Under the pieces are notes generated by a model. It was given only the letters and a program-made list of their open reading frames with translations, was not told the origin of the DNA and made no database searches. A stretch of DNA of 64,000 nucleotides from an uncultured cyanobacterium (GTDB lineage Bacteria > Cyanobacteriota > Cyanobacteriia > Cyanobacteriales > Nostocaceae). Position numbers and translations under genes: made by a program. Every line of letters begins with the position of its first letter. The first letter of the stretch is position 1. This document shows, one piece after another, positions 22,659 to 54,735 of this stretch. The DNA is taken from the NCBI GenBank assembly GCA_963706595.1, contig OY970166.1, positions 4,064,001 through 4,128,000 of the forward strand, read 5' to 3'.

Positions 22659-24740
22659 ATGACATCAAATCTAATAACTGAGAGTCCCATTATTCAGTTT
22701 ACCATTCTCCTCACAGTAATTTTTACTGTCCCTCCGATATTTGAGCGCCTGCGAATACCTGGATTAGTCGGTTTACTGGTCGCAGGAGTGGTACTAGGGC
22801 AAAATGGGTTAAAGCTTCTAGACACTAACTCAGAAACGGTCAAGCTGCTTTCAGATATCGGCAAAGTTTATTTAATGTTTGTGGCCGGTTTAGAAATCGA
22901 TTTACAACAATTTCGTAAAACTAAAAATCGCTCAATTGTCTTTGGAATCCTCACATTTATAGTGCCATTAATTGCTGGGATACTTGTCGGGCGATTGTTC
23001 AATTTTGGCTGGAATGCGTCTGTCCTGATTGGTTCTTTACTAGCCTCCCATACTCTCTTAGCTTATCCAATTGTCAGTCGTCTGGGAGTGGTAATGAATG
23101 AAGCTGTGACAGTCACAGTCGGGGCGACAATTTTTACTGACACAGCCGCTTTATTAGTCTTAGCAATTTGTGTGGGAATTCATGGGGGAGAATTCTCGGT
23201 GATAAGTTTAGTAACTTTATTAGGTGGATTAGCAATTTATTCTGCTCTTGTACTCTTTGGCTTCGATTGGGCTGGTAAAGAATTTTTTCGCCGTTCTGGA
23301 GATGAACAAAGTAACCAGTTTTTATTTATCTTACTAGCTTTATTTCTCGCATCTGTGGGAGCGCAGATAGTTGGAGTTGAAAAAATTGTTGGGGCATTTT
23401 TAGCAGGTTTAGCAGTTAATGATGTTGTAGGACGCAGCCCAGTTAAAGAAAAAATTGAATTTATCGGTAGCGTCTTATTTATCCCTTGTTTCTTTGTAGA
23501 TATGGGGCTTCTAATTAATATTCCGGCATTTATCAAAACTCTTGGTTCAATTTGGCTAACAGTGGTAATTGTCGTCGCTTTAATTTCCAGCAAATTTATA
23601 GCTGCATTTTTAACCAAGCTCATTTACCGCTACAACACTGCGGAAATGCTCACAATGTGGTCGTTGTCCTTACCACAAGTAGCCGCTACATTAGCAGCAA
23701 CCTTAGTTGGCTATCAAACCTTAAATCCTGCTGGTGAAAGGCTAATTAGTGAAAGTGTCTTAAATAGTGTGATTGTCCTGATGTTAGTTACTTCAATTAT
23801 GGGTCCATTAATCACAACAAGATTTGCGGCGTTATTACAAATGCCCCAGACAGATTTAGAAACCGAAAATACTTCAAATTGGTGGGAAAATCCTGATAGT
23901 CAGCCAGCCGAAATAACTCAGCATCCATTCACTGTAGCAGTACCAATATACAATCCCCAAACGCAGCGCTATTTAATAGAAATGGCAGCCTTAATCGCTC
24001 AACATGAATCTGGTAAAATTTTGCCATTAGCTATTACCAAAGCCCACGTTCACATGGATGATCCACAATTAGGAATCTCACTAGAACAAAGTCAAAAAAG
24101 ATTAAAAATGGCTGAAGAAATCAGTCAAGAATTTAATGTAAAAGTGTCAACAGCAATTCGCATTGATGATGATGTTGCTTTGGCAATTAGCCGCATCAGT
24201 CGAGAACAAAATGCTAGTTTAGTCGTAATGGGTTGGTCTCGCACCACAGGTTTACGCGCCCGTTTATTTGGTAGTATAATTGATAGCGTTTTCTGGTCTT
24301 CTCACTGTCCAGTCGCAGTCACACGCCTGGTAAGTAGTCCCAAGACAATTGCCAGAATTATTGTGCCAATTGGAGATTTAAGACCTCAAACTATCAGCGC
24401 TTGGCGGTTTGCGGAAATGTTAGCTGATGTGAATCAGGCGGAGGTTGTACTATTACACGTTTCTAACAGCAACACTCCCGCGAATTTAGTAGAACAATTT
24501 ACAACTCAATTGTCTGATATTGTTGCTAAAAGTCAGTTGCAGGTTAATACAAAAATCCAAATCATTATCGATGATGATGTTGCTAAAGCCATAGTTCGGG
24601 AAGCACAAGCTTTTGATTTAGCTGTGTTACGTTCTGTGCGTTATCGCACCACAGGCGGGTTAGCCGTCAGTCAAGTCACAACTCAGGTGATAGAAGAGTT
24701 AACTGGTTCTATTGTGTTATTAGGAGAAGCACATCTTTAG
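22659..24740 (+). CDS. Cation/H+ antiporter (CPA2 family) with C-terminal USP-like domains
   Basis: Multi-TM N-terminus (LMFVAGLEIDL, IVGAFLAGL, PQVAATLA); USP-like VVMGWS...LFGSIIDSV. Confidence 0.9.
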   Translation: MTSNLITESPIIQFTILLTVIFTVPPIFERLRIPGLVGLLVAGVVLGQNGLKLLDTNSETVKLLSDIGKVYLMFVAGLEIDLQQFRKTKNRSIVFGILTFIVPLIAGILVGRLFNFGWNASVLIGSLLASHTLLAYPIVSRLGVVMNEAVTVTVGATIFTDTAALLVLAICVGIHGGEFSVISLVTLLGGLAIYSALVLFGFDWAGKEFFRRSGDEQSNQFLFILLALFLASVGAQIVGVEKIVGAFLAGLAVNDVVGRSPVKEKIEFIGSVLFIPCFFVDMGLLINIPAFIKTLGSIWLTVVIVVALISSKFIAAFLTKLIYRYNTAEMLTMWSLSLPQVAATLAATLVGYQTLNPAGERLISESVLNSVIVLMLVTSIMGPLITTRFAALLQMPQTDLETENTSNWWENPDSQPAEITQHPFTVAVPIYNPQTQRYLIEMAALIAQHESGKILPLAITKAHVHMDDPQLGISLEQSQKRLKMAEEISQEFNVKVSTAIRIDDDVALAISRISREQNASLVVMGWSRTTGLRARLFGSIIDSVFWSSHCPVAVTRLVSSPKTIARIIVPIGDLRPQTISAWRFAEMLADVNQAEVVLLHVSNSNTPANLVEQFTTQLSDIVAKSQLQVNTKIQIIIDDDVAKAIVREAQAFDLAVLRSVRYRTTGGLAVSQVTTQVIEELTGSIVLLGEAHL

Positions 24741-24776
24741 GGCTAGTAACAAATTAGATTTTTCAAACATCCTCTA

Positions 24777-24956
24777 AGCTCGACTTTATCCAAAATTAAG
24801 AACTCGGTTTTCTTTATCTGGCAAAACCTCTGGCTTTTTGGCAAATATTTTTTCCATATCACTTATTATCAATGAAATAAAAAAGGTACAACACCTACTC
24901 CACAAAGGTTTCCGTCATAGCTATTGCCTCAGCGTAAAAATGGATAAAGTCGAGCT
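24777..24956. mobile_element. 180-bp MITE-like element
   Basis: Perfect 16-bp terminal inverted repeats AGCTCGACTTTATCCA / TGGATAAAGTCGAGCT; no transposase inside. Confidence 0.65.
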
Positions 24957-25022
24957 GAGACGGCAAAGTTATCAAAGGTTAATCTCAGATTTTACTTACA
25001 ATTATTCTAGAACAAATAAACA

Positions 25023-25454
25023 ATGCAAGAGTCATTTTCCAATTCAGCAGGCAGACATCTACAGGATGCCCAAATTCTTTTGAACGCGCAACGGTGGGAC
25101 AACGCCGTTTACCTAGCAGGTTATGTTGTAGAATGTTCCTTTAAAGTACTTGTTGAGCAATACTTTAAGCATGACCAAGGTGCGGTAAAAAAATATGGAC
25201 ACGACCTCACTGAACTTGAGGGAAGGGCGATGGAACGCTTGCGAGTTCTCTATCCTATTTTGGATAAGCAACTTCCTGCTTTACGAATAGTTGGCACTGT
25301 TCTAGGTCAATATCATCCAGATCGTAGATATTCCAAATGTGGACTTTGGGCTGAAGCTGAGGCAAGAACTGCCGTTCAACGTGCGGAAGAAATCTACCGG
25401 GAAATACTCCCTAAGTTAGTGCTAAACGGCTCAATTTCTAGCCAGGATATTTAA
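25023..25454 (+). CDS. HEPN-domain protein
   Basis: RHLQDAQILL...AVYLAGYVVECSFK...GHDL..L...RRY pattern typical of classical HEPN helical bundles. Confidence 0.65.
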   Translation: MQESFSNSAGRHLQDAQILLNAQRWDNAVYLAGYVVECSFKVLVEQYFKHDQGAVKKYGHDLTELEGRAMERLRVLYPILDKQLPALRIVGTVLGQYHPDRRYSKCGLWAEAEARTAVQRAEEIYREILPKLVLNGSISSQDI

Positions 25455-25457
25455 TAA

Positions 25458-26819
25458 ATGACGATCACTTTTGGTGAAACCTTTGATAAAGTACGCGAAT
25501 GCTTTCAGGAACAAATCATTGTAGATACACTTGTACCTAAACTTCAGTCCGTCACTATTATTCGTGATGTTAATGGAAAGATTAGAATTTTTCTTGAACC
25601 ATTACAAAATAATACCATTCAAGAATCAGAAACAACTGATCTTAATACCGTTTTATCTACAGAACTGGGAAATTATTATGGGCATGACATTTGGCTGCCG
25701 ACAGGAGAAAAGGATGCTTACAAAGCTTTAATTGATACTATCAAAAATGAAAGAATTTTTGCGTCTTGGGATGATCAATCAGTTAAGCCTCGGTGGTATA
25801 TTCTTGAGCGCCACATTGCTAAACAGGCATGGACAGATAATAAACTAGGTAAACCACCTTGGACATATTCCTTAGTCGCGCAAAAGCATAAGCCTGCAAT
25901 CGTATCTTTTTTCTCATTTAAAGGAGGTGTTGGACGGAGCAGTCCTCTTGTTGCGACGGCATTGACTTTAGCCCGTAACGGTCATCGAGTTGCCATTGTT
26001 GACCTGGATTTAGAAGCACCAGGTTTGGCTACGATTTTTTCACCAGACAACTCCACAAATCTAGGTGTGATTGATTATTTATTGGAAAAGAAGATTCAAC
26101 AAGATGATTGTAAACTACGTACTCATCTGAGAAGCATTAATGAGCAGACTTTGCGAGGTGATGATGGTGAAAGTATACAATTACTTCCGGCTGGAACCGT
26201 AGATAACAATTATTTAGAAAAGTTAGCCCGATTGGACTTTCAGAACCTTGTGGATGGTGAAATGCAAAGTACAATGCAAAATATGTTAAAAGAATTGCAA
26301 AGCGAAGTAAGAGATTTAGATTTTATTCTGATGGATGCGCGAGCTGGTTTTCACGATATTGGTGGCTTGGCAATCACAAATCTCTCACATGGGGTAGTTA
26401 TATTTGGAACTCAATCACGTCAAAGTTGGGCTGGCTTAACCCATGTTATTCGACATTTAGCAAGTCCTGGAGTTGATGAACGTTTACCGTTGATTCTTGT
26501 ACATTCGATGGCTCCAGCTATAGGAATGCCAGGACGAGAAACAGAATTGAAAGAATTTCGGGAACAAGCATACATTGTTTTTCAAGAAAACTATTACTCT
26601 GAAGATGAAACTGTCCCTGATACTAACAATACAGAAGAACCATTTTTTCCTGTCGTTTTGCCGTATCAGGAAAGTCTACGTGGGGACATAGCTCTATTTT
26701 TTCGTAACTCAACTCCAGAAGAATCAAATCGACTGTCAGACCTCGTAAACATAATGACAAATTCTCCTTATCAGGATATTGCAGAAAAGTTATGTGGACT
26801 TTTTGGGCGTGAATTTTAA
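25458..26819 (+). CDS. ParA/MinD-like ATPase, KGGVGR variant, with N-terminal extension
   Basis: FFSFKGGVGRSS deviant Walker A, VDLDLEAPG, ILMDARAG. Confidence 0.85.
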   Translation: MTITFGETFDKVRECFQEQIIVDTLVPKLQSVTIIRDVNGKIRIFLEPLQNNTIQESETTDLNTVLSTELGNYYGHDIWLPTGEKDAYKALIDTIKNERIFASWDDQSVKPRWYILERHIAKQAWTDNKLGKPPWTYSLVAQKHKPAIVSFFSFKGGVGRSSPLVATALTLARNGHRVAIVDLDLEAPGLATIFSPDNSTNLGVIDYLLEKKIQQDDCKLRTHLRSINEQTLRGDDGESIQLLPAGTVDNNYLEKLARLDFQNLVDGEMQSTMQNMLKELQSEVRDLDFILMDARAGFHDIGGLAITNLSHGVVIFGTQSRQSWAGLTHVIRHLASPGVDERLPLILVHSMAPAIGMPGRETELKEFREQAYIVFQENYYSEDETVPDTNNTEEPFFPVVLPYQESLRGDIALFFRNSTPEESNRLSDLVNIMTNSPYQDIAEKLCGLFGREF

Positions 26820-26839
26820 AATTTAGATAAATTGAAACT

Positions 26840-28333
26840 ATGAGTGAATTTAATAAGCAAAAACTACTGGAATTAATCGTGGATATCGCCCCAGGTTGGG
26901 GTATTGCTGAACACGAAAGCTATAATGAAGATAAATTCTTAAAAAACTTTTTGCCCATAGCAGATTATCGTCTTGTTTTAGAACCGAATATATTATTAAT
27001 ACTAGGAGGACGTGGGGTAGGAAAAACAGAATTATTTCGTTTACTGGCAATGCCTTTAGGACGAAAATCTTTGGTTGAAAGCTTGGAAATCAGATCCTTA
27101 CCTACTTTGAGCAAAACAACATGGATAGCTGGTTTTGGAAGGACTCGCACAGCAGAAAAGCGATTTCCAACGCCAGAGAGTGTTGAAAGACAAATGGATA
27201 AGGCGACAAAGATTGAATGGCGTAGCTTCTGGATTGGTTTAATTTTAGGTGTATTATTACAGCAAGAAGATTTTAAGTTCAAAAATTTTCTGATTGAACA
27301 AATAGATCCAGAAATAGCCAACATTCTTAGAGATAACTTATCTCTCTTATCAATCTGGCAACCTATAGTTAATCAACATCTTGAAAAATTAAATTCTGTT
27401 TTGGATAAATTAGATCAAAAACTCACAGAAGAAGATGATTGGTTATTTGTAACTTATGATGAATTAGACCGATTAGTTGCTTCCTATACTGCCTTAGCAA
27501 GCCCAATTCGTGAACTTTTAGCTTTGTGGCTTGATCGATGGCGACGTTGGGATAGAATACGACCTAAAATATTTTTGCGTACTGATCTGTTTCGAGAAGA
27601 TTTTTTGAGTTTTCCTGATGCTTCCAAACTGCAAGCCCATCAAATCCGATTGGAATGGAAACATTCATGGCTTTATCAATTGTTGGTCAAACGACTTGCT
27701 AACTCTGGTACTGAAATGACGGAATATTTGCAAAATATCCCAGAGTTAATTATTGAAAACAAAACTGGTTTGGGCTGGACTGCAACATCAAATGAAAAAT
27801 TATTTGAAGAACTAATCGAAAGGATGATTGGTAAGTATATGGGGGCTAATGCTAAAAAAGGAATTACCTATCGCTGGATTCCTAATCACCTTCAGGATGC
27901 TGGTGGTAGAATTTCGCCACGTTCTTTTCTTAAATTATTTGCCTTAGCTGCACAAAGTCGAATACCACATTTGTCTTTTATTGAACAAAATACACTACTT
28001 TTACAACCCTCTGATTTACAAGGGGCTTTAATGCATACTTCAGATGATAGAATTAGGGAATTACAGGAAGAGTATCCTTGGTTAGAATCTCTCAAGACGA
28101 GCTTAGAAAATCTGAAAGTTCCTATGCAAAAAGAAGTATTTTTAGATGCTATAAAATCTACTACGTGGACTCCTGAAAAACGACCACCTGTAACTAAGTC
28201 TGAAGAAATTTTGCAATATTTACTTCAACTTGGAATTGTAGAAATTCGTTCTGATGGACGTATTAATATCCCCGAAATCTATTTGTATGGATTTAAAGTT
28301 AAACGCAAAGGTGGGCTGAAACGTCCCAAGTAG
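26840..28333 (+). CDS. P-loop ATPase (Sll1717-like / STAND-like)
   Basis: Walker A GGRGVGKT, Walker B LFVTYDELD, KIFLRTD, SPRSFLKLF, winged-helix-like C-terminus. Confidence 0.8.
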   Translation: MSEFNKQKLLELIVDIAPGWGIAEHESYNEDKFLKNFLPIADYRLVLEPNILLILGGRGVGKTELFRLLAMPLGRKSLVESLEIRSLPTLSKTTWIAGFGRTRTAEKRFPTPESVERQMDKATKIEWRSFWIGLILGVLLQQEDFKFKNFLIEQIDPEIANILRDNLSLLSIWQPIVNQHLEKLNSVLDKLDQKLTEEDDWLFVTYDELDRLVASYTALASPIRELLALWLDRWRRWDRIRPKIFLRTDLFREDFLSFPDASKLQAHQIRLEWKHSWLYQLLVKRLANSGTEMTEYLQNIPELIIENKTGLGWTATSNEKLFEELIERMIGKYMGANAKKGITYRWIPNHLQDAGGRISPRSFLKLFALAAQSRIPHLSFIEQNTLLLQPSDLQGALMHTSDDRIRELQEEYPWLESLKTSLENLKVPMQKEVFLDAIKSTTWTPEKRPPVTKSEEILQYLLQLGIVEIRSDGRINIPEIYLYGFKVKRKGGLKRPK

Positions 28334-28419: not shown

Positions 28420-29583
28420 CTAACCAAATAATCTTTGCCAAGTTAATTGTTTCGTGTTTTCATCTTTATGCCAGCGCAACAAATTGGCGGCTGGATTAGA
28501 AATAATTCCGGGTAAATTTATCGCTTTTCTAGGTGCATTTGTAGCTAAGGCGATCGCACTTTCTAAATCACACACTCCCCAGTTTACCAAATTTTGCACT
28601 CCCACTAATAAGGGTAAAGTTGTCCCTGATAAAGTTCCATCCGCTAATCTGGCTGTACCGTTTTTCACTTCAATTTGCCGACTGTCCCAAGGATACACGC
28701 CATCGGGTAGCCCCAGAGGTGCGAGGGCATCACTGACCAAAAATAGCCCTTGTGCTTGATGGCTGGCGCGGAGGAGAATTTGCAGCATTGTGGGTGTAAC
28801 GTGTTCACCGTCGGCAATGAAACCACACATCACATCAGGATGGGTAATTGCTGCACCTAATAGTCCCGGTTCGCGGTGATGTAATGGCGGCATAGCGTTG
28901 AAAGCATGAGTTACCATTGTTGCCCCCTGGTTAAAAGCCGCTTGTGCTTGGGCTGCTGTCGCCTGGGAATGCCCTAAACTGACAATTATCCCCAAAGAAC
29001 GCAAATATGGGATTACTTCCCCGGTAGTGTCTAATTCTGGGGCTAAAGTAATTACTTTGACAACATGGGCATAATCACCCAAAACTCTGTTTACTTGCTC
29101 AATTGTCAGAGGTAACAAATATTCGGCTGGGTGTGCGCCCCGCTTTTGGTAATTTAAAAATGGACCTTCTAAATGTACCCCCAGAATCTTTGCACCTATT
29201 TTTTGTGTGGGAATCAGATCAGCTATGATGGCGATCGCACGCTGGATATTTTCGACTGAAGTTGTCACTACAGTGGGCAAAAATCCATCTACCCCAACAT
29301 CCCAGAGAAATTGCGATATTTTAGGGATAATATCCGCATTTTCCGCCTTTAAATCGGGAAAAGCCAAACCCAACGCCCCATTAATCTGTAAATCCACACC
29401 GCCCAAAGAAATCCAATCACCAGCGACATCTAGCAAAGACTCACATCCAGTCAATGCCGTACTCATGGGTAAGATTTGCTCAATTATCCCTTCATGGTTA
29501 ACTAAAATTCTTTGTAAATCTTGATAACTAGGTACTCGTGCATTGATAATACATAACGGGTTTTGTGTTGCTTTGGTCATCAC
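28420..29583 (-). CDS. nagA: N-acetylglucosamine-6-phosphate deacetylase
   Basis: DLQING, HLEGPFL..KRGAH, TLAPE, SLGHS, THAFNAM. Confidence 0.95.
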   Translation of the reverse strand: MMTKATQNPLCIINARVPSYQDLQRILVNHEGIIEQILPMSTALTGCESLLDVAGDWISLGGVDLQINGALGLAFPDLKAENADIIPKISQFLWDVGVDGFLPTVVTTSVENIQRAIAIIADLIPTQKIGAKILGVHLEGPFLNYQKRGAHPAEYLLPLTIEQVNRVLGDYAHVVKVITLAPELDTTGEVIPYLRSLGIIVSLGHSQATAAQAQAAFNQGATMVTHAFNAMPPLHHREPGLLGAAITHPDVMCGFIADGEHVTPTMLQILLRASHQAQGLFLVSDALAPLGLPDGVYPWDSRQIEVKNGTARLADGTLSGTTLPLLVGVQNLVNWGVCDLESAIALATNAPRKAINLPGIISNPAANLLRWHKDENTKQLTWQRLFG

Positions 29584-45902: not shown

Positions 45903-47379
<1,477 letters not shown>

Positions 47380-47490
47380 GTTAATTCTCGTTAAATGTCG
47401 TTACTGGGGTTAACCTGGTAACGATATTCATGTTGAGGGTAAATTTGGAACAATCGAAATATTTATATTGAAATTAAAGCCTAAAAATCA

Positions 47491-47658
47491 ATGAGTGAAT
47501 CAATTAAATGGACTGCTGACGCTGAAGCTAAACTCAAGGAAATCCCTTTTTTTGTCCGTCCTTTTGCCCGTAAAAAGATTGAAACCTATGCTGAGGAGAA
47601 TAATATTTCTCTCATCACTCTCGAAATTTATGAAGCTGTGAAAAAACAATTTAATTAA
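47491..47658 (+). CDS. Stand-alone PCP_red (ChlB C-terminal-like) domain protein, 55 aa
   Basis: Hand translation MSESIKWTADAEAKLKEIPFFVRPFARKKIETYAEENNISLITLEIYEAVKKQFN; absent from the ORF track. Confidence 0.85.
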   Translation: MSESIKWTADAEAKLKEIPFFVRPFARKKIETYAEENNISLITLEIYEAVKKQFN

Positions 47659-47772
47659 GATTTTAACTCATATCATTTTCTGCAAAACATTTATAATTCA
47701 ATTTCACGCAGAGGCGCAGAGTCGCAGAGAGTTTTCATGAGTGTTTATGATAACTAATTCAACTGACTATAT

Positions 47773-48993
47773 ATGCTGAATGTTGAAAATTTTTCTAGAA
47801 ATATCTTCTCTCGGAAAAAACTCTGGACTGTCACTATTTCATTGACGGCTATCCTGTTTGTGGTGACGGGTTGGACGCAATTCTCTTGTTACCCAATGGT
47901 GACTGGTGGAGTTTTACCCAAATTTTGTAATAGTCACGAAAGGATACTAAAAATTATCCAAGAACCTAGAACTCATGGGAATACTTTAAGGATTTTGGCT
48001 GCAAGTCCTGAATCTGATGAAAGTGTACTCAGAGCCTTGACATCTTCCCTTGATAGCCCAAAGGTTGATAAAAATCTCAAGCTGCTTAAACGTGCGATCG
48101 CTTTTAATTCCAATACTCCTGTAGATGTCTTAGATGTGTTCGTACAATCGGAAGATGTGGGTATACTTGAGAATATTGCTAAACGTTCAAATGCTACTCC
48201 TGAAATCCTGAGAGAAGTTGCTAACAATCCTTATGCAGATGCTTTTGTAGTTCAAAAAGCTCTAGTTGCAAATCCTCAAACTCCTGAAGATGTATTAAAA
48301 AAATTAGCTAACTCAAAAGAAAGCCAAATTTTGTGGTCAATAGCCAATCTAAAAAAAGCTTCTCCTAGTATATTACGAGAAATATCTAATAATCCTGTCA
48401 TCACCAATCCTATGATTCAGGATGAATATCTCAAAAACCTTCCTATTAAACTGGCTGCTAATCAAAACACTCCTGAAGATGTCCTAAAAAGATTGGCTGA
48501 ATATACAAATTATAGTGTCTTACTTTTAGTAACTAAAAATGTAAATTCCTCTGAAGCAGTAATGGATTTGGTAGCAGAAAATCCTATCACATGGCAAGAA
48601 AATGGTATTCAGATATCACTAGCTAGTAAAAACAAAATATCAAACAAGCTCATCCAAAAATTAGCTGATTCTAACGACGGAAATGTTCTGTTGGCATTAT
48701 CTCAAAACTCAGCTTTACCTTCAGAGTTAAAAAACATTGTTATCGAAAGACTCGATCAATACACAGATGATTTGAAAATTGAAATTTCTCAACCGCTTGA
48801 TATTTCAGACAACATAGTAATTGACAGTAAAAAAAACAACTGTCCTAACAGACATCTTCGGAATAATCTCTTAGGAGGAGCCGCAGGAGCATTAGGATTT
48901 ATATTTGGTGGACCTGTGGGAGCATTAGCTGCTTATGGTACAGTGACTGCTTCACTAGAAACTGTGACAACTATTTATGGTTGTCAGTTCTAA
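47773..48993 (+). CDS. Membrane-anchored leucine-rich-variant (LRV/HEAT-like) repeat protein with glycine-zipper tail
   Basis: N-terminal TM; repeats A.NP.TPEDVL..LA; C-terminal GGAAGALGFIFGGPVGA between two Cys. Confidence 0.75.
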   Translation: MLNVENFSRNIFSRKKLWTVTISLTAILFVVTGWTQFSCYPMVTGGVLPKFCNSHERILKIIQEPRTHGNTLRILAASPESDESVLRALTSSLDSPKVDKNLKLLKRAIAFNSNTPVDVLDVFVQSEDVGILENIAKRSNATPEILREVANNPYADAFVVQKALVANPQTPEDVLKKLANSKESQILWSIANLKKASPSILREISNNPVITNPMIQDEYLKNLPIKLAANQNTPEDVLKRLAEYTNYSVLLLVTKNVNSSEAVMDLVAENPITWQENGIQISLASKNKISNKLIQKLADSNDGNVLLALSQNSALPSELKNIVIERLDQYTDDLKIEISQPLDISDNIVIDSKKNNCPNRHLRNNLLGGAAGALGFIFGGPVGALAAYGTVTASLETVTTIYGCQF

Positions 48994-49047
48994 TGTTAAT
49001 GCTAAATGTTGATGATTTTTTTATAACTTAAATTGGAGAAATTAATT

Positions 49048-49470
49048 ATGGAAAGCGAAAACTCAAAATTGGTAGGAAAATCTGAGCAATCATTTACAAA
49101 GTGGATAGTGACTGCTTCATTAATCACTTTTTTACTATTTAGCACATTTTTATTTATGGGCTTAAAAAGCCAGTATATTGAAGTAGATTTGTGTGTTTTT
49201 GCGGTTAATTGTTCTCAAGCCCCGGAACAAGTCACAGATAAGGCTCGAATTGATATAACAGAAGTTCCTCTAGATCCAAATACAGCCTTTCAGCCAATGA
49301 AAATAACTGTCAAACCATTAGCAGTAGCAGCAGTTGCTGGAGTGGTATCTAGTGCTGCTATCGCAGCCTTGATTGGATTGGGATTGATTAGTCTGCCTAT
49401 GGAATTGGCTTTGGCTATAGGAGCTTTAATCGGTTATGGAACTCATTTTGCTTTGAAAACTTTGTATTAA
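49048..49470 (+). CDS. Hypothetical membrane protein
   Basis: N-terminal TM, Cys pair, Ala/Gly-rich hydrophobic C-terminal hairpin; GGAG RBS before ATG 49048. Confidence 0.7.
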   Translation: MESENSKLVGKSEQSFTKWIVTASLITFLLFSTFLFMGLKSQYIEVDLCVFAVNCSQAPEQVTDKARIDITEVPLDPNTAFQPMKITVKPLAVAAVAGVVSSAAIAALIGLGLISLPMELALAIGALIGYGTHFALKTLY

Positions 49471-49563
49471 TCTGGTTGTTGGCAATTCGTTATTATTATG
49501 CTATTGCAAATAGCTATTATCTCACTATTAAAATCAACATCAAAATCTAGAGGAGAATAAAAA

Positions 49564-51096
49564 GTGAATGTCATTGAAATAGACAATATAAATTACGCTC
49601 GTTCTTATATAGAACATCCTCTAGAAAATATACAACTTACAGTCAAGCAAGGAGAACTTGTACATTTAAAGGGTGAAACTGGTGCTGGTAAATCCACTCT
49701 CATAGATATTCTTCTAGGCATTAAATACCCTGATAGCGGAACAGTAAAAATTTTTGGTTCCCCTCCCAGCGAACTTAAATCAAAATTTCTCACAGGAGTT
49801 GCACCACAAAAAATAGGACCTCCAATTGAAAATGCCCAGTTAGGCAGGTTAATTGATTTAATTGAAAGTCATTATCAAGGAGCAGAAGGTAAAATAAATT
49901 CTATCTTAGAAGATTTTGGACTTAAGTTTTCTAAAAATAAGCAAAGATTGTCAGGTGGACAAGAAAGAATTTTATTTTTTGCACTTGCACAGGCTGGTTC
50001 TCCTAAGCTTTTAATTCTCGATGAACCTACTACATTTCTCGATACTGAAGATACGGAAAATAATGTTAGTAAACTCACAAAATTCTGGAAGCATTTGCAG
50101 AAGTTTCATGAAGAGGGTAATACAGTTTTACTAATTTCCCATGATCGAGAAATTGGTGTTCAGCCAACACGAACTATCTGCTTAAAGGATGGTCGCTTAA
50201 ACGAATCATTTAATGTTTCCAATACGGAGGAATCATTCGATCAAGAAGTTGATTCAAATTTAATTGATTCTGATAACCAAGTAGGTGCATTGCACTGGCT
50301 ATCCTTACTTAGTAAACACGTAAAGTTTAATATTCAACAAACATTCCAGGCTGACCGAAAATATATATGGCTGACATTCATAGCTAGTTTTGTGTGGGCG
50401 GGCTGCATCTCTTTTGCTGCAAAGATAGGAAGCGGTGAAAATTCCAGCAGTGTATATACTATCGCTAATGCTTATTCTTTCTATCTAGCGATGACTGCCG
50501 CTAACAGCACTGGTAACATTATTGCAGAGGAACGCCAAAATGAAATATTGACGAAATTTCTGAAGGTTCTTCCATTACCTCCAATTATTTATCTATCTGC
50601 CAAAGTAATTGCATCTTGGTTAATCACTTCTTTACTAATATTAACAATGCTATTTACAACACTGTTTAGTAATGTAATATCCCCATCTATATTTATTTCA
50701 TTATTAGGGAGTTTAATATTGGGAGTAATTCCGTATTTGTTTTTAGGATTGGCATTAGGCTATTTATTTGAAAAACCAAAAAGTATTCAGATAGCGGCTT
50801 TAATGTCTTCGCTTATTTTGACAATACCAGTTTTTACCAGACCTATATTTAAGGTAATAGAAACTGTATTTGCAATACCAGGAAAACTAAATATGGCAGC
50901 ATTGATAGGAGATAATGTTGCAGCTCATTCTCCTATTTACCATTACATCCAAATAATACTTTTTTCGGGTAAAGCACCTGAATATGATCGGTACTTGTGG
51001 CTGCACTTGGGTTGGCTAATATGGTTTACTCTCATTTCCATACTTATAGCTTTATGGGCATACTGGCGTACCTGTAAGCAAGAAGCACAAGCATGA
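49564..51096 (+). CDS. Fused ABC transporter (ATP-binding domain + ABC-2-type permease)
   Basis: GETGAGKS, LSGGQ, ILDEPT, ISHD, then about six TM helices; GAGGAG RBS. Confidence 0.88.
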   Translation: MNVIEIDNINYARSYIEHPLENIQLTVKQGELVHLKGETGAGKSTLIDILLGIKYPDSGTVKIFGSPPSELKSKFLTGVAPQKIGPPIENAQLGRLIDLIESHYQGAEGKINSILEDFGLKFSKNKQRLSGGQERILFFALAQAGSPKLLILDEPTTFLDTEDTENNVSKLTKFWKHLQKFHEEGNTVLLISHDREIGVQPTRTICLKDGRLNESFNVSNTEESFDQEVDSNLIDSDNQVGALHWLSLLSKHVKFNIQQTFQADRKYIWLTFIASFVWAGCISFAAKIGSGENSSSVYTIANAYSFYLAMTAANSTGNIIAEERQNEILTKFLKVLPLPPIIYLSAKVIASWLITSLLILTMLFTTLFSNVISPSIFISLLGSLILGVIPYLFLGLALGYLFEKPKSIQIAALMSSLILTIPVFTRPIFKVIETVFAIPGKLNMAALIGDNVAAHSPIYHYIQIILFSGKAPEYDRYLWLHLGWLIWFTLISILIALWAYWRTCKQEAQA

Positions 51097-51205
51097 TATC
51101 TGAGAAACCAAACAATTTAGATTTTATATCACTTGAATTAGAGGGATAGGAAAGCACAAAAATGTTGCTATGTATGAATTTTATCCCCAGGGATAGAACA
51201 GGCGA

Positions 51206-52819
51206 TCAGGAATACAATTTAGCCTCTAACTGTTTTAATATCCGCTTAGGATCATTCTTATCTCCTTTGAAAAACTTCCAAGCCGCAAAACCAGCACCAG
51301 CAGCAATTAACGCCCCGCCACCTGTTACTGCTGCTAATCCTCCTAACATTCCTAAACCACCCGTAGCTACAGAGCCACCACCTAATAGAGCTAAAGTTGC
51401 ATTAATCGCTGCACCTCCAGATAAAGTGCTAATTGCTGTCCCTGTACTAGCAACACCAAAAGCACCCGCAGCAGTCCAAACTGTACCAACAGCAGCAGCA
51501 CTTGTTGCAACTCCAACTCCAGCTGCAATTCCTAATTTTTTCTTATCTTCAGCATCCATTTGGCTAACAGAAGCAACGGATACTAAAGCAGCTGCACCAA
51601 TTAACGCGCCTCCACCCGTTGCTACTGCTAATCCTCCTAACATTCCTAAACCACCCGCAGCTACAGAGCCACCACCTAACCAAGCTAAAGTTGAACTAGT
51701 CGCTGCACCTCCAGATAATGTACCTATAGCTACTCCTGTTCCTGCTTTTATCCCATTTTTTGATGCAATTTGTATAGCAGTTGGGACAATTGCAGCAGCT
51801 TTTTTCACTGAATCGCTGATTATTCTGACTTTAGCAAGAACATCATCATTTTTCTTTCCGTTCTGATTGTTCACTGGTTCACGCATCAACTTGTAAATTA
51901 CTTTACAATCATCTGGTATCTGAGAATCTAAGATGAGTGAGTCTAATAATTTCAAATTTACTCGCTCAGAAACTTGTTTACCATCTATGAGTGCAGCATA
52001 GGTATTAAGTATATCGGATTTGTATGTACTACTTGTGATGCTAGAACAACTATCAATTAGATTGACTATAAATATATCAACAGTCATCGCTTTAGCTGTG
52101 ACACTGGAAGAGAAATATATTTGTTTAAGTTCGTCAGGCAGTGAACTATTTTGAATAATGGTATCAAGTTGATTTAAAATCTCAAAATTAGCTATGTTTT
52201 TTCCGGCTTTGATACACTGATATGTTCCTCTAATCAACTGCTTCTCATTCTTATTTAAGTTAGATGCAGTTAAGGCATTATCAATACATTGTTCTATTTG
52301 GAATAATCTAGAATTTTGACTTGCAATATTGTATCGCTTAGAAACTGAAGAATTTACTTGAGAGGATGAAATAATAAAATCTAATAAATTTAGAGCAGGT
52401 AAGTCATCTATAGATTTAGCATCGCTAATATTCTGATATACATTTGCACATTTTTCTTTGCTTGTTAACTTAATATCCGCATTGTTGATTAAGTCATATA
52501 TTATTTTCTCTATGTTTGTACTATTGTCAAACAATGTATGGACAGTGATAATAATATCATTTTCATTATCTATATATTCTGGTGAAAAATTTTCATAAAT
52601 TTTACTAATAATTCCTTTAAAAGAATTATTATTTTTATGTGAATTACGTCTTTTTAAGCGTAGTTTAGTTTCTTCCAAACAGTTAGCAGGAATTTTAACT
52701 TCATAGCTTTTTCCTGACCTTGATGTAACTTGTTGCGTTCCACCTTGCTTGGCTGTTCCATAAGCTACAAAAATGTGCTGTAACTCGTCTTGTTGAGCTT
52801 GCATATTTTGTTCTGTCAT
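51206..52819 (-). CDS. Hypothetical protein: DnaJ-C-like N-terminus, helical repeats, duplicated glycine-zipper region
   Basis: A..GG......GKSYEVKIPA.....KLRLK; three LD.II..S.(L/I/V) units; two 98-aa-spaced TG.AI.TLSGGAA...TLA.LGGGSVA.GGLGMLGG copies. Confidence 0.75.
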   Translation of the reverse strand: MTEQNMQAQQDELQHIFVAYGTAKQGGTQQVTSRSGKSYEVKIPANCLEETKLRLKRRNSHKNNNSFKGIISKIYENFSPEYIDNENDIIITVHTLFDNSTNIEKIIYDLINNADIKLTSKEKCANVYQNISDAKSIDDLPALNLLDFIISSSQVNSSVSKRYNIASQNSRLFQIEQCIDNALTASNLNKNEKQLIRGTYQCIKAGKNIANFEILNQLDTIIQNSSLPDELKQIYFSSSVTAKAMTVDIFIVNLIDSCSSITSSTYKSDILNTYAALIDGKQVSERVNLKLLDSLILDSQIPDDCKVIYKLMREPVNNQNGKKNDDVLAKVRIISDSVKKAAAIVPTAIQIASKNGIKAGTGVAIGTLSGGAATSSTLAWLGGGSVAAGGLGMLGGLAVATGGGALIGAAALVSVASVSQMDAEDKKKLGIAAGVGVATSAAAVGTVWTAAGAFGVASTGTAISTLSGGAAINATLALLGGGSVATGGLGMLGGLAAVTGGGALIAAGAGFAAWKFFKGDKNDPKRILKQLEAKLYS

Positions 52820-53067
52820 GACTAAATAGTATAGTGAGAGTTTTGGTAAGAAATATACCAATCATGACCATGAGTCTAAGTAATTAGCAACCGAATAAAC
52901 ACTTATAATCATGCAAATAATTTTAACCAAAACAGTATTATCAACCATACCCTCAAACTACAGCTTAAAAAACAAGGGTGTCAAATGACAGAAGAGCAAT
53001 ACCTCTGGTAAAGGGTGCGATCGCTTCGAGATAAAATAAATATAATCACGGTAAATATTGTAATTTT

Positions 53068-53409
53068 TTACCGACTATTGCTGATTTCCACAATCATTTC
53101 TCCTTGGCGCAATTGTTTAAGCGCAGCAGGTAATGTCAAATTCAGGAGTCGATGCAAATTACGATTAGTAACATTTCCACAAGTCAGCCAAAGAATTTGA
53201 GGGGGTATCCCTAGCCGACAAACCAAATCAACGAAATCACTGTCTTTAGTCATGATGATGACATTGGCGATTCTTGCAGCTTCAAAAATTTCGATATCTT
53301 TAGCGTCGCGGAGTCCAATATCTCTTAATGAAAAGGCTTCTATAGCAACAGTATTTGTTATCCAACTTGCCAATGTTGGCGGTAACTGAGCATCAATCCA
53401 AATCTTCAT
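53068..53409 (-). CDS. DUF5615 PIN-like toxin
   Basis: MKIWIDAQLP, D.EIF..A...IIMTKDSDF, WLTCGN; 4-nt overlap with the upstream antitoxin. Confidence 0.88.
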   Translation of the reverse strand: MKIWIDAQLPPTLASWITNTVAIEAFSLRDIGLRDAKDIEIFEAARIANVIIMTKDSDFVDLVCRLGIPPQILWLTCGNVTNRNLHRLLNLTLPAALKQLRQGEMIVEISNSR

Positions 53410-53630
53410 GCTGTCAAACGGACAAAATCAGTGCGACGTGCAGCAAACAAAAGACAAGCTTGAATATCTTCTGGTTCTAAATCAGGAAAGTCCTCTAAGA
53501 TTTCGTTAACGCTGACATTTTCCGCTAACATTTCTAAAATGTCGCTGACTCTAATTCTCATACCTCGAATGCAAGGACGACCCCCACATTGACCCGGAAT
53601 TTGCGTGATACGAGTCAATAATTCACTCAT
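53406..53630 (-). CDS. DUF433 antitoxin
   Basis: RIT..PGQCGGRPCIRGMRIRV...ILEDFPDLEPEDIQACL. Confidence 0.92.
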   Translation of the reverse strand: MSELLTRITQIPGQCGGRPCIRGMRIRVSDILEMLAENVSVNEILEDFPDLEPEDIQACLLFAARRTDFVRLTA

Positions 53631-53853
53631 TGAATTAATCGTTTATTGGGCTATAAAATTATATTTTACCATAATTTCGATATCATAAATTGACTATACG
53701 CTTTTTTCGACATTTTCAATATTTACTATGTGCGATCGCATATCATGAAAGTAGCAAGCTGACAAAGTGCCTGTCCTTGGCGTTCTTTGCGTCTTGGCGG
53801 TTCGTTTTCTCATTCTTCTGTAAGCCAAAATCCCATAAATCAATGAAAAAAAA

Positions 53854-54735
53854 TTGCAACCTTTAACACAGGGATATCAACTGCAATACACACATCCTCA
53901 CGGAAAACTTTATCAAGGTAATTCCATAGATTGGCTGACATCACTTGAATCCAAAAGCATTGATTTAGTCTTTGCTGACCCACCTTATAACATTAAAAAA
54001 GCTGAGTGGGACAACTTTGAGAACCAAGAAAAATATATCGATTGGTCAATTCAATGGATTAGCCAAGCTTCACGTATTCTTAAGCCCACTGGCTCACTTT
54101 ATATTTGTGGTTTTTCCGAAATATTAGCTGATTTAAAACATCCAGCATCAAAATATTTTAAAAATTGCCGTTGGTTAATTTGGCATTATAAAAACAAAGC
54201 TAATTTAGGTAATGATTGGGGACGTTCCCATGAAAGTATCATTCATTTTCGTAAATCTGATTCCGTTAAACTAAACATTGACGATGTGCGAATTCCTTAT
54301 AGCGCACACACATTAAAATATCCCTCTCACCCCCAAGCCCAAACCAGCGCCTACGGAAAAGGAACAAAGCAGAAACATAATAACTGGACACCTAACCCAA
54401 AAGGCGCAAAGCCTAAAGACGTAATAGAAATTCCTACTACTTGTAATGGAATGGATGAGAAAACACCCCACCCAACTCAAAAACCAGAAGAATTAATCAG
54501 AAAATTTGTATTAGCATCTTCTCAAGCAGGAGATTTGATTATTGATCCATTTTCAGGTTCAGGAACAACTGTTGTAGTTGCAGAACAACTTAATCGTTAC
54601 TGGATGGGATGTGATCTAAATATTGAGTATAACGATTGGGCTACTAAACGAATAGAAAATGTCCGTCGCCTGAGCAAAGAAGAATGGCTAGCCTTTGATC
54701 GTAAAAATGCCGAAAGAAGAGTATCTATCAGATGA
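53854..54735 (+). CDS. N4/N6 DNA methyltransferase, beta class, apparently orphan
   Basis: ADPPYN precedes HPTQKP and DPFSGSGTT. Confidence 0.92.
   Translation: MQPLTQGYQLQYTHPHGKLYQGNSIDWLTSLESKSIDLVFADPPYNIKKAEWDNFENQEKYIDWSIQWISQASRILKPTGSLYICGFSEILADLKHPASKYFKNCRWLIWHYKNKANLGNDWGRSHESIIHFRKSDSVKLNIDDVRIPYSAHTLKYPSHPQAQTSAYGKGTKQKHNNWTPNPKGAKPKDVIEIPTTCNGMDEKTPHPTQKPEELIRKFVLASSQAGDLIIDPFSGSGTTVVVAEQLNRYWMGCDLNIEYNDWATKRIENVRRLSKEEWLAFDRKNAERRVSIR

Follow-up and report, generated by a model that had tools for sequence, protein, structure and literature searches.

Three consecutive genes in a 64,000-nucleotide stretch of DNA from an uncultured cyanobacterium of the Nostocaceae (GenBank assembly GCA_963706595.1, contig OY970166.1, positions 4,064,001 to 4,128,000 of the forward strand; hereafter the window) very probably belong to the PDC-M28/HINPO candidate immune system. 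The trio encodes a HEPN protein, a ParA-type ATPase carrying a nucleotidyltransferase-like domain at its N-terminus, and a STAND-type ATPase, and it is likely to serve in conflict or defence. It is already catalogued and not new, having been in PADLOC since 2023 and having received a name and an interpretation in a preprint of 2026. Its features, in window coordinates, are as follows.

25023–25454, plus strand: gene 1, open reading frame (ORF) of 143 amino acids (aa); HEPN protein of the PF05168/class II type (PDC-M28A; PA-HEPN1 of HINPO), from Pfam, the PADLOC model and conserved residues
25458–26819, plus strand: gene 2, ORF of 453 aa; iNTase-ParA
25458–25895, plus strand: N-terminal domain of gene 2, predicted MNT-like (Pol-beta nucleotidyltransferase) fold lacking the catalytic GSx10DxD (iNTase), from the predicted structure and a motif scan
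25893–26819, plus strand: ParA/MinD-type ATPase domain of gene 2, KGGVGR (ConB2) clade (NF047398; PDC-M28B), from profiles, structure match and alignment
26840–28333, plus strand: gene 3, ORF of 497 aa; STAND/ORC-CDC6-like P-loop ATPase (NF047389, Sll1717 family; PDC-M28C), from profiles and alignment

The ORFs are co-oriented and separated by 3 nt (genes 1 and 2) and 20 nt (genes 2 and 3), as described in the original prediction, an earlier annotation of this DNA made from its sequence.

Assignment to PDC-M28 and HINPO

Searches with the PADLOC hidden Markov models assigned gene 1 to PDC-M28A (E = 4.1e-13), gene 2 to PDC-M28B (2.1e-66) and gene 3 to PDC-M28C (5.5e-81). The matches span 382 of 438 model positions for gene 2 and 478 of 480 for gene 3; the best stretch in gene 1 covers only 51 of 138, a short match that might matter under the PADLOC rule-file thresholds, which stand apart from these model searches. 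The PDC-M28A model is matched by all 88 HEPNs that we aligned. PDC-M28 is an entry of PADLOC-DB 2.0, and PDC stands for phage defence candidate, from the work of Payne et al. (10.1101/2024.01.29.577857), whose set is described as predicted rather than tested and was picked for embedding in BREX, DISARM or type I restriction–modification (RM) systems; M28 itself is not named in the main text of that paper. HINPO, as described by Li, Burroughs and Aravind (10.64898/2026.10.19.760177), consists of an upstream HEPN, an iNTase-ParA and a downstream ORC-CDC6/STAND protein, with fused forms. The evidence for it in the relevant sections of the preprint is computational, and the main text mentions neither PDC nor PADLOC. 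We infer that HINPO and PDC-M28 are one system. A full-text literature search returned this preprint as the only relevant source on HINPO, none for PDC-M28 or Sll1717, and nothing relevant for the KGGVGR motif. The original prediction had presented the trio as undescribed and matching no named system, and had itself named a match to an already described system as grounds for rejection; such a match is what we found, and the claim of novelty therefore falls. Its broader picture of a conserved, patchy and mobile defence-type module with two NTPases beside a HEPN is supported.

Domains and conserved residues

Gene 1 scores above the Pfam HEPN cut-off (PF05168; 26.3 versus 22 bits), which upholds its earlier identification as a HEPN protein. 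Residues E37, C38, K41, R102 and Y103 do not vary across the 72 aligned rows, and H60 is nearly invariant (71 of 72). An R102-anchored Rx4-6H motif occurs in only 2 of 88 aligned HEPN rows and is absent from the window protein, as is the RX4HXY of class I HepT-MntA (type VII toxin–antitoxin) HEPNs. By its residue pattern (E-C-x-x-K, H, RY) the window protein is a class II HEPN, the type found in HEPN-MNT pairs whose PF05168 HEPNs lack RX4H and conserve the Tyr (PMC7641770). An alternative active site with an upstream His has been proposed for HEPNs of this type (PMC3710099). HEPN domains often act as RNase effectors, but RNase activity of this one is not assured because Rx4-6H is lacking.

In gene 2, the KGGVGR-motif ATPase profile NF047398 begins at residue 146 (E = 1.4e-55) and the KGGVGRSS motif is present, in agreement with the predicted N-terminal extension of ~145 aa. 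Arg160 (at the position of the second Walker A Lys), Asp182, Asp184 and Pro188 are invariant in 148 of 148 rows, and Gly189 is conserved in 146. On these residues the domain fits the ConB2 clade, with a Walker A Arg, given as a mark of the whole clade (10.64898/2026.10.19.760177), and a PG after the sensor DxD. A structure model of the full protein (predicted local distance difference test score, pLDDT, 93.5) matched FleN, ParA and MinD structures. The first 146 residues were also modelled alone (pLDDT 89.8), and MNTs made up four of the top five structural matches among 48,161 chains (8xeh, Z = 6.6; 1wot, 6.6; 1no5, 6.3; 5yep, 6.1), with root-mean-square deviations of 2.6–3.0 over 85–89 aligned residues; in a repeat comparison the top three were MNTs. 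This fold accords with the inactive Pol-beta nucleotidyltransferase that the HINPO preprint places at the N-terminus of ParA. Searches by sequence alone gave no sign of a relationship to MNTs. BolA was considered as an identity for the domain and rejected, no BolA being among the 50 structural matches listed. The catalytic motif G[SG]x8-12DxD was found in 0 of 64 rows, and the nucleotidyltransferase domain should be catalytically dead; because GSx10DxD is absent, it should not AMPylate. The original prediction had given the HEPN no MNT partner, which holds for a catalytic MNT but overlooks the inactive MNT-like fold fused to gene 2. Since the extension appears to be such a domain, the HEPN would have a vestigial MNT partner, a reading with moderate support from the model. 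Four gene 2 relatives (P0250, P0251, P0305 and P0306) are 907–1377 aa long, and that of 1377 aa must carry further domains.

The profile hit by gene 3 is NF047389, which describes P-loop ATPases of the Sll1717 family (E = 9.5e-32), and both motifs noted previously, GGRGVGKT and YDELD, are present. Walker A and B residues are invariant among its relatives, and the C-terminus holds an invariant basic motif, a G..R.GG tail. The ORC-CDC6-like family PF24389 is matched by 34 of 47 STAND rows at E ≤ 0.01. Window gene 3 lies below the Pfam cut-off, and its ORC-CDC6 assignment is weak by this measure; a fused paralog in the same genome lies above it (29.6 versus 27). We also read a putative C-terminal winged helix from the sequence pattern. 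STAND proteins of ~750–760 aa at two loci (L096:5314-7566 and L097:5251-7542) are longer and hence have an extra domain.

Conservation and decay of the trio

Searching with gene 3 yielded 24 genome loci, of which 17 have an intact trio, three are cut by contig ends and four are decayed. The gene 2 alignment led to 560 confirmed metagenome loci, and the best 80 of these were examined, a sample biased to closer relatives, with some near-duplicates. At metagenome loci with enough sequence, a HEPN lies upstream in 66 of 67, a STAND gene downstream in 60 of 60, and both in 51 of 52, as counted with profiles built partly from those same loci; a first pass without locus-built profiles matched 60 of 68 upstream and 54 of 58 downstream ORFs. 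Conversely, 21 of 24 HEPN-model matches have an adjacent ParA gene. The genes do co-occur elsewhere, a point on which the original prediction depended, and the HEPN, found at all but one of the 67 informative loci, is suggested to be a core part.

Decay of the trio appears asymmetric. The iNTase-ParA is damaged or missing in nine loci (L045, L049, L062, L063, L070, L126, L141, L149 and L160), and in all nine the HEPN is broken, truncated or absent; an intact HEPN beside a damaged iNTase-ParA was seen in 0 of 9. The HEPN alone is damaged in three loci (L073, L074 and L131) and the STAND alone in two (L092 and L112). This asymmetry lends weak support to an antitoxin role of the iNTase. At L078:3617-5251, a single open frame of 545 aa encodes both the HEPN and the iNTase-ParA, through natural fusion or through loss of a stop codon; this locus, too, supports the antitoxin reading beyond the folds.

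Distribution, mobility and neighbours

The cassette is accessory and mobile. The trio occurs in 4 of 11 genomes of the genus, in two of these at a different site, and six other genomes have antiporter-like and nagA-like genes 51–778 bp apart, that is, an empty site. PDC-M28C was matched in 22 of 201 genomes of the phylum, in 12 of 26 sampled from the window's cyanobacterial family, and in none of 82 from family f35 or of 14 controls. A core-genome housekeeping distribution, which the original prediction had set against its proposal, is not what these counts describe. Relatives of gene 2 are present on 24 plasmid records; the two inspected, from Calothrix and Enterobacter, both hold the trio next to integrases. 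With the queries used, no relative was found in phage collections.

Fused frames of 873–955 aa account for 20 of 29 cyanobacterial PDC-M28C matches. One such PDC-M28/HINPO-type locus lies in the same genome as the window:

G000 C1:5553300-5556463 (L031:5301-8464), minus strand: HEPN gene followed by an 894-aa ParA-STAND fusion

This paralog shares ~40% identity with gene 2 and 24% with gene 3 over matched stretches. Its N-terminal domain differs, with a weak BolA match (E = 0.052), and a profile alignment to the N-terminus of gene 2 failed (probability 0.4%). In two genomes (L054:6181-14812 and G091 C152) a split and a fused version are only a few kb apart.

A scan of 125 flanking ORFs at 19 loci, three to four per side, found a defence-type neighbour at seven: CBASS, type II RM, SoFic-like, BrxC, PDC-M52B, Csx3 and a second M28-type gene. 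We did not count TnpB/Cas12f (L032, L046 and L054) or a kinase (L056), nor the weak single matches to PtuB (L050), mad2 (L058) and BrxP (L045). At one more of the scanned loci, in Anabaena sp. UHCC 0187 (L042:9490-11463), the trio directly adjoins type V-K TnsB/TnsC genes and may, because of that position, be cargo of a CRISPR-associated transposon. Elsewhere (L162:1058-1836, L167:1462-2240 and L168-L176) a HEPN closely related to that of HINPO has a 129-aa protein as its partner, with no ATPases. The 129-aa partner is present in 9 of 301 genomes of the phylum, with the HEPN upstream at six of nine loci, and the two may form a minimal toxin–antitoxin pair. As an iNTase the partner gave a profile comparison that was not significant, no Pfam match and only unnamed Atlas clusters.

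The immediate surroundings of the trio, with the two flanking genes named from the original prediction and from the appearance of their sequences, are:

22659–24740: antiporter-like gene, 693 aa, upstream flank
24739–24780, no strand: dispersed short repeat of 42 bp, with 28 genome matches including itself; outside the system
24773–24960, no strand: miniature inverted-repeat transposable element (MITE) of 188 bp with 20-bp terminal inverted repeats; outside the system
28420–29583, minus strand: nagA-like gene, downstream flank

Both the flanking pair and the upstream MITE had been reported correctly. The MITE, whose end is 62 bp 5′ of the HEPN start, is a recent insertion: genome G006 lacks it at this site, as does run X1, whose contig skips 24775–24958; its insertion point is the end of the 42-bp repeat. 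The trio had been called AT-rich, which is true of genes 2 and 3 (GC content 0.385 and 0.358, versus 0.413 for the genome) but not of gene 1 (0.438). A promoter scan was at chance level (8 found, 11.2 expected). Separately, window positions 47001–54000 are AT-rich (GC 0.30–0.42 by kb), contain several ORFs and may be a further acquired island.

Proposed mechanism and alternatives

The observed basis for a mechanism consists of gene order, conservation, mobility, the two domain folds of gene 2 and the conserved residues. Our tentative proposal, to which we give somewhat less than even weight, is that the trio provides dormancy or abortive defence built on a class II HEPN-MNT toxin–antitoxin pair to which a two-ATPase sensor switch has been added. 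The HEPN would be the toxic effector, an RNase with an alternative E/K/H/R site. The non-catalytic MNT domain, tethered to the ParA-type ATPase, would restrain it by binding, an arrangement for which the fold, though not the binding itself, is supported. The ORC/CDC6-STAND ATPase would sense the invader, probably as DNA and by way of its C-terminal part with the basic tail, and would then act on ParA in place of the ParB or MinE of housekeeping systems. A change in the nucleotide state of ParA would free the HEPN, leading to RNA cleavage and growth arrest. The more specific idea at the centre of this scheme, that an antitoxin MNT gave up AMPylation and restrains its toxin by binding while the STAND, acting on the ParA switch, controls release, is held more doubtfully.

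Several points weigh against this proposal. The Z-scores for the MNT fold (6.1–6.6) are middling and OsmC ties at Z = 6.3, and for these reasons support for the fold is moderate; Foldseek returned no match for the domain at E ≤ 0.001. The decay sample is small and made up of hand-picked anomalies, metagenome frameshifts may be assembly errors, and adjacent genes are naturally lost in one deletion. With so few loci, such co-deletion and the case of L160, where the HEPN retains its RY motif and has lost just the last helix, the decay evidence is weak. The window copy stands alone between housekeeping genes, and 12 of the 19 scanned loci have no clear defence neighbour within three to four ORFs per side, a raw count without a background rate. 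Literature searches, outside which most subscription journals and preprint supplements lay, found no experimental test of PDC-M28 or HINPO. Finally, the canonical RNase motif is missing from the HEPN, and the available text of PMC7641770 gives no biochemistry or RNase activity for class II HEPNs, which were untested as of that paper. The same two facts would suit a non-catalytic HEPN serving as an RNA- or nucleotide-binding sensor or adaptor, with the output coming from the ATPases through ATP depletion or DNA binding. We consider this improbable: the polar residues E, K, H, R and Y, invariant even among divergent rows, resemble an active site, and the label ‘inactive’ in the available text of PMC3710099 is kept for HEPNs without conserved polar residues.

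A different division of labour is set out in sections 22 and 41 of the preprint of Li, Burroughs and Aravind (10.64898/2026.10.19.760177), where ORC/CDC6 recognises the DNA of an invader and seeds ParA multimers, which cover this DNA and block it; the main effector is then ParA, the HEPN is only a backup, and the iNTase is a sensor of nucleotides. The frequent ParA-STAND fusions fit this model, as does the persistence of intact ParA and STAND at the three loci where the HEPN alone is damaged. We nonetheless think it unlikely in view of the near-constant presence of the HEPN, the closeness of the iNTase to MNT antitoxins, and the coincidence of damaged or lost iNTase-ParA with HEPN damage at nine of nine loci. 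Less likely still, the cassette belongs to mobile elements as an addiction or stress-response module and plays no part against phages. Location on plasmids beside integrases, the TnsB/TnsC adjacency at L042 and the majority of loci lacking defence neighbours would be expected of such a module; set against them are the CBASS, BREX and RM genes among the neighbours, the choice of PDC candidates for lying inside BREX, DISARM or type I RM systems, and a two-NTPase apparatus that would seem to exceed what addiction needs. Independently of these alternatives, and whatever the function of the family, there is a modest chance that the window copy is impaired. An A-to-C change at window position 25944 places a private Pro163 in the helix just after the gene 2 Walker A, seen in 1 of 148 aligned rows (the window itself) and 1 of 120 close matches, where genome G006 and runs X1 and X5 have a Thr codon, and the upstream MITE is fresh, being absent in G006 and X1. 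All three frames, however, are open and full length with every catalytic motif kept, position 163 tolerates A, L, T, S and others, and the Pro163 change could be a sequencing error.

As a discovery the trio is minor, the system being already catalogued and named. Its value is as a test case, common in the window's cyanobacterial family and available in split and fused versions in one genome, for two linked questions: whether class II (PF05168) HEPNs lacking Rx4-6H act as toxins, and whether an MNT without catalysis can still be their antitoxin. If the proposed mechanism is true, it would provide a working HEPN RNase without Rx4-6H (an E-C-x-x-K / H / RY site of the PF05168 type, to which the sacsin HEPN also belongs) and, for bacterial immunity, a relay of two NTPases.

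Comparison with known systems

The window ParA is unlike those of ParABS and MinCDE, having a Walker A Arg in place of KGGxGK and belonging to an accessory locus (4 of 11 genus genomes). It is adjoined by HEPN and STAND genes and then by the antiporter-like and nagA-like genes, with no ParB, MinC or MinE. ParA-HeH subtype 4 (ParA, HeH and a HEPN tRNase), which is reported to have been tested in Salmonella (10.64898/2026.10.19.760177), likewise defends against phages with an ATPase of the ParA family and a HEPN effector; as described there it differs in its ConB1 ParA branch and its HeH partner, and both iNTase and STAND are absent from it. Class I HepT-MntA pairs differ from the window trio, which has neither an RX4HXY HEPN nor a GSx10DxD MNT. 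Class II HEPN-MNT pairs are closer, sharing a PF05168 HEPN without RX4H, the conserved Tyr and an adjoining MNT-fold domain, whereas the predicted MNT of the window lacks GSx10DxD (0 of 64 rows) and forms one protein with ParA, and the locus has a STAND gene in addition. With HINPO the trio shares gene order, a predicted iNTase on a ConB2 ParA and a downstream STAND, and the fused ParA-STAND variants were also found here (the 894-aa fusion in the same genome, and L135). No anatomical difference was found; section 22 of the preprint is silent on the absence of Rx4-6H and on an antitoxin role for the iNTase. From PDC-M28 no difference was found, and the window trio matches its A, B and C models in order.

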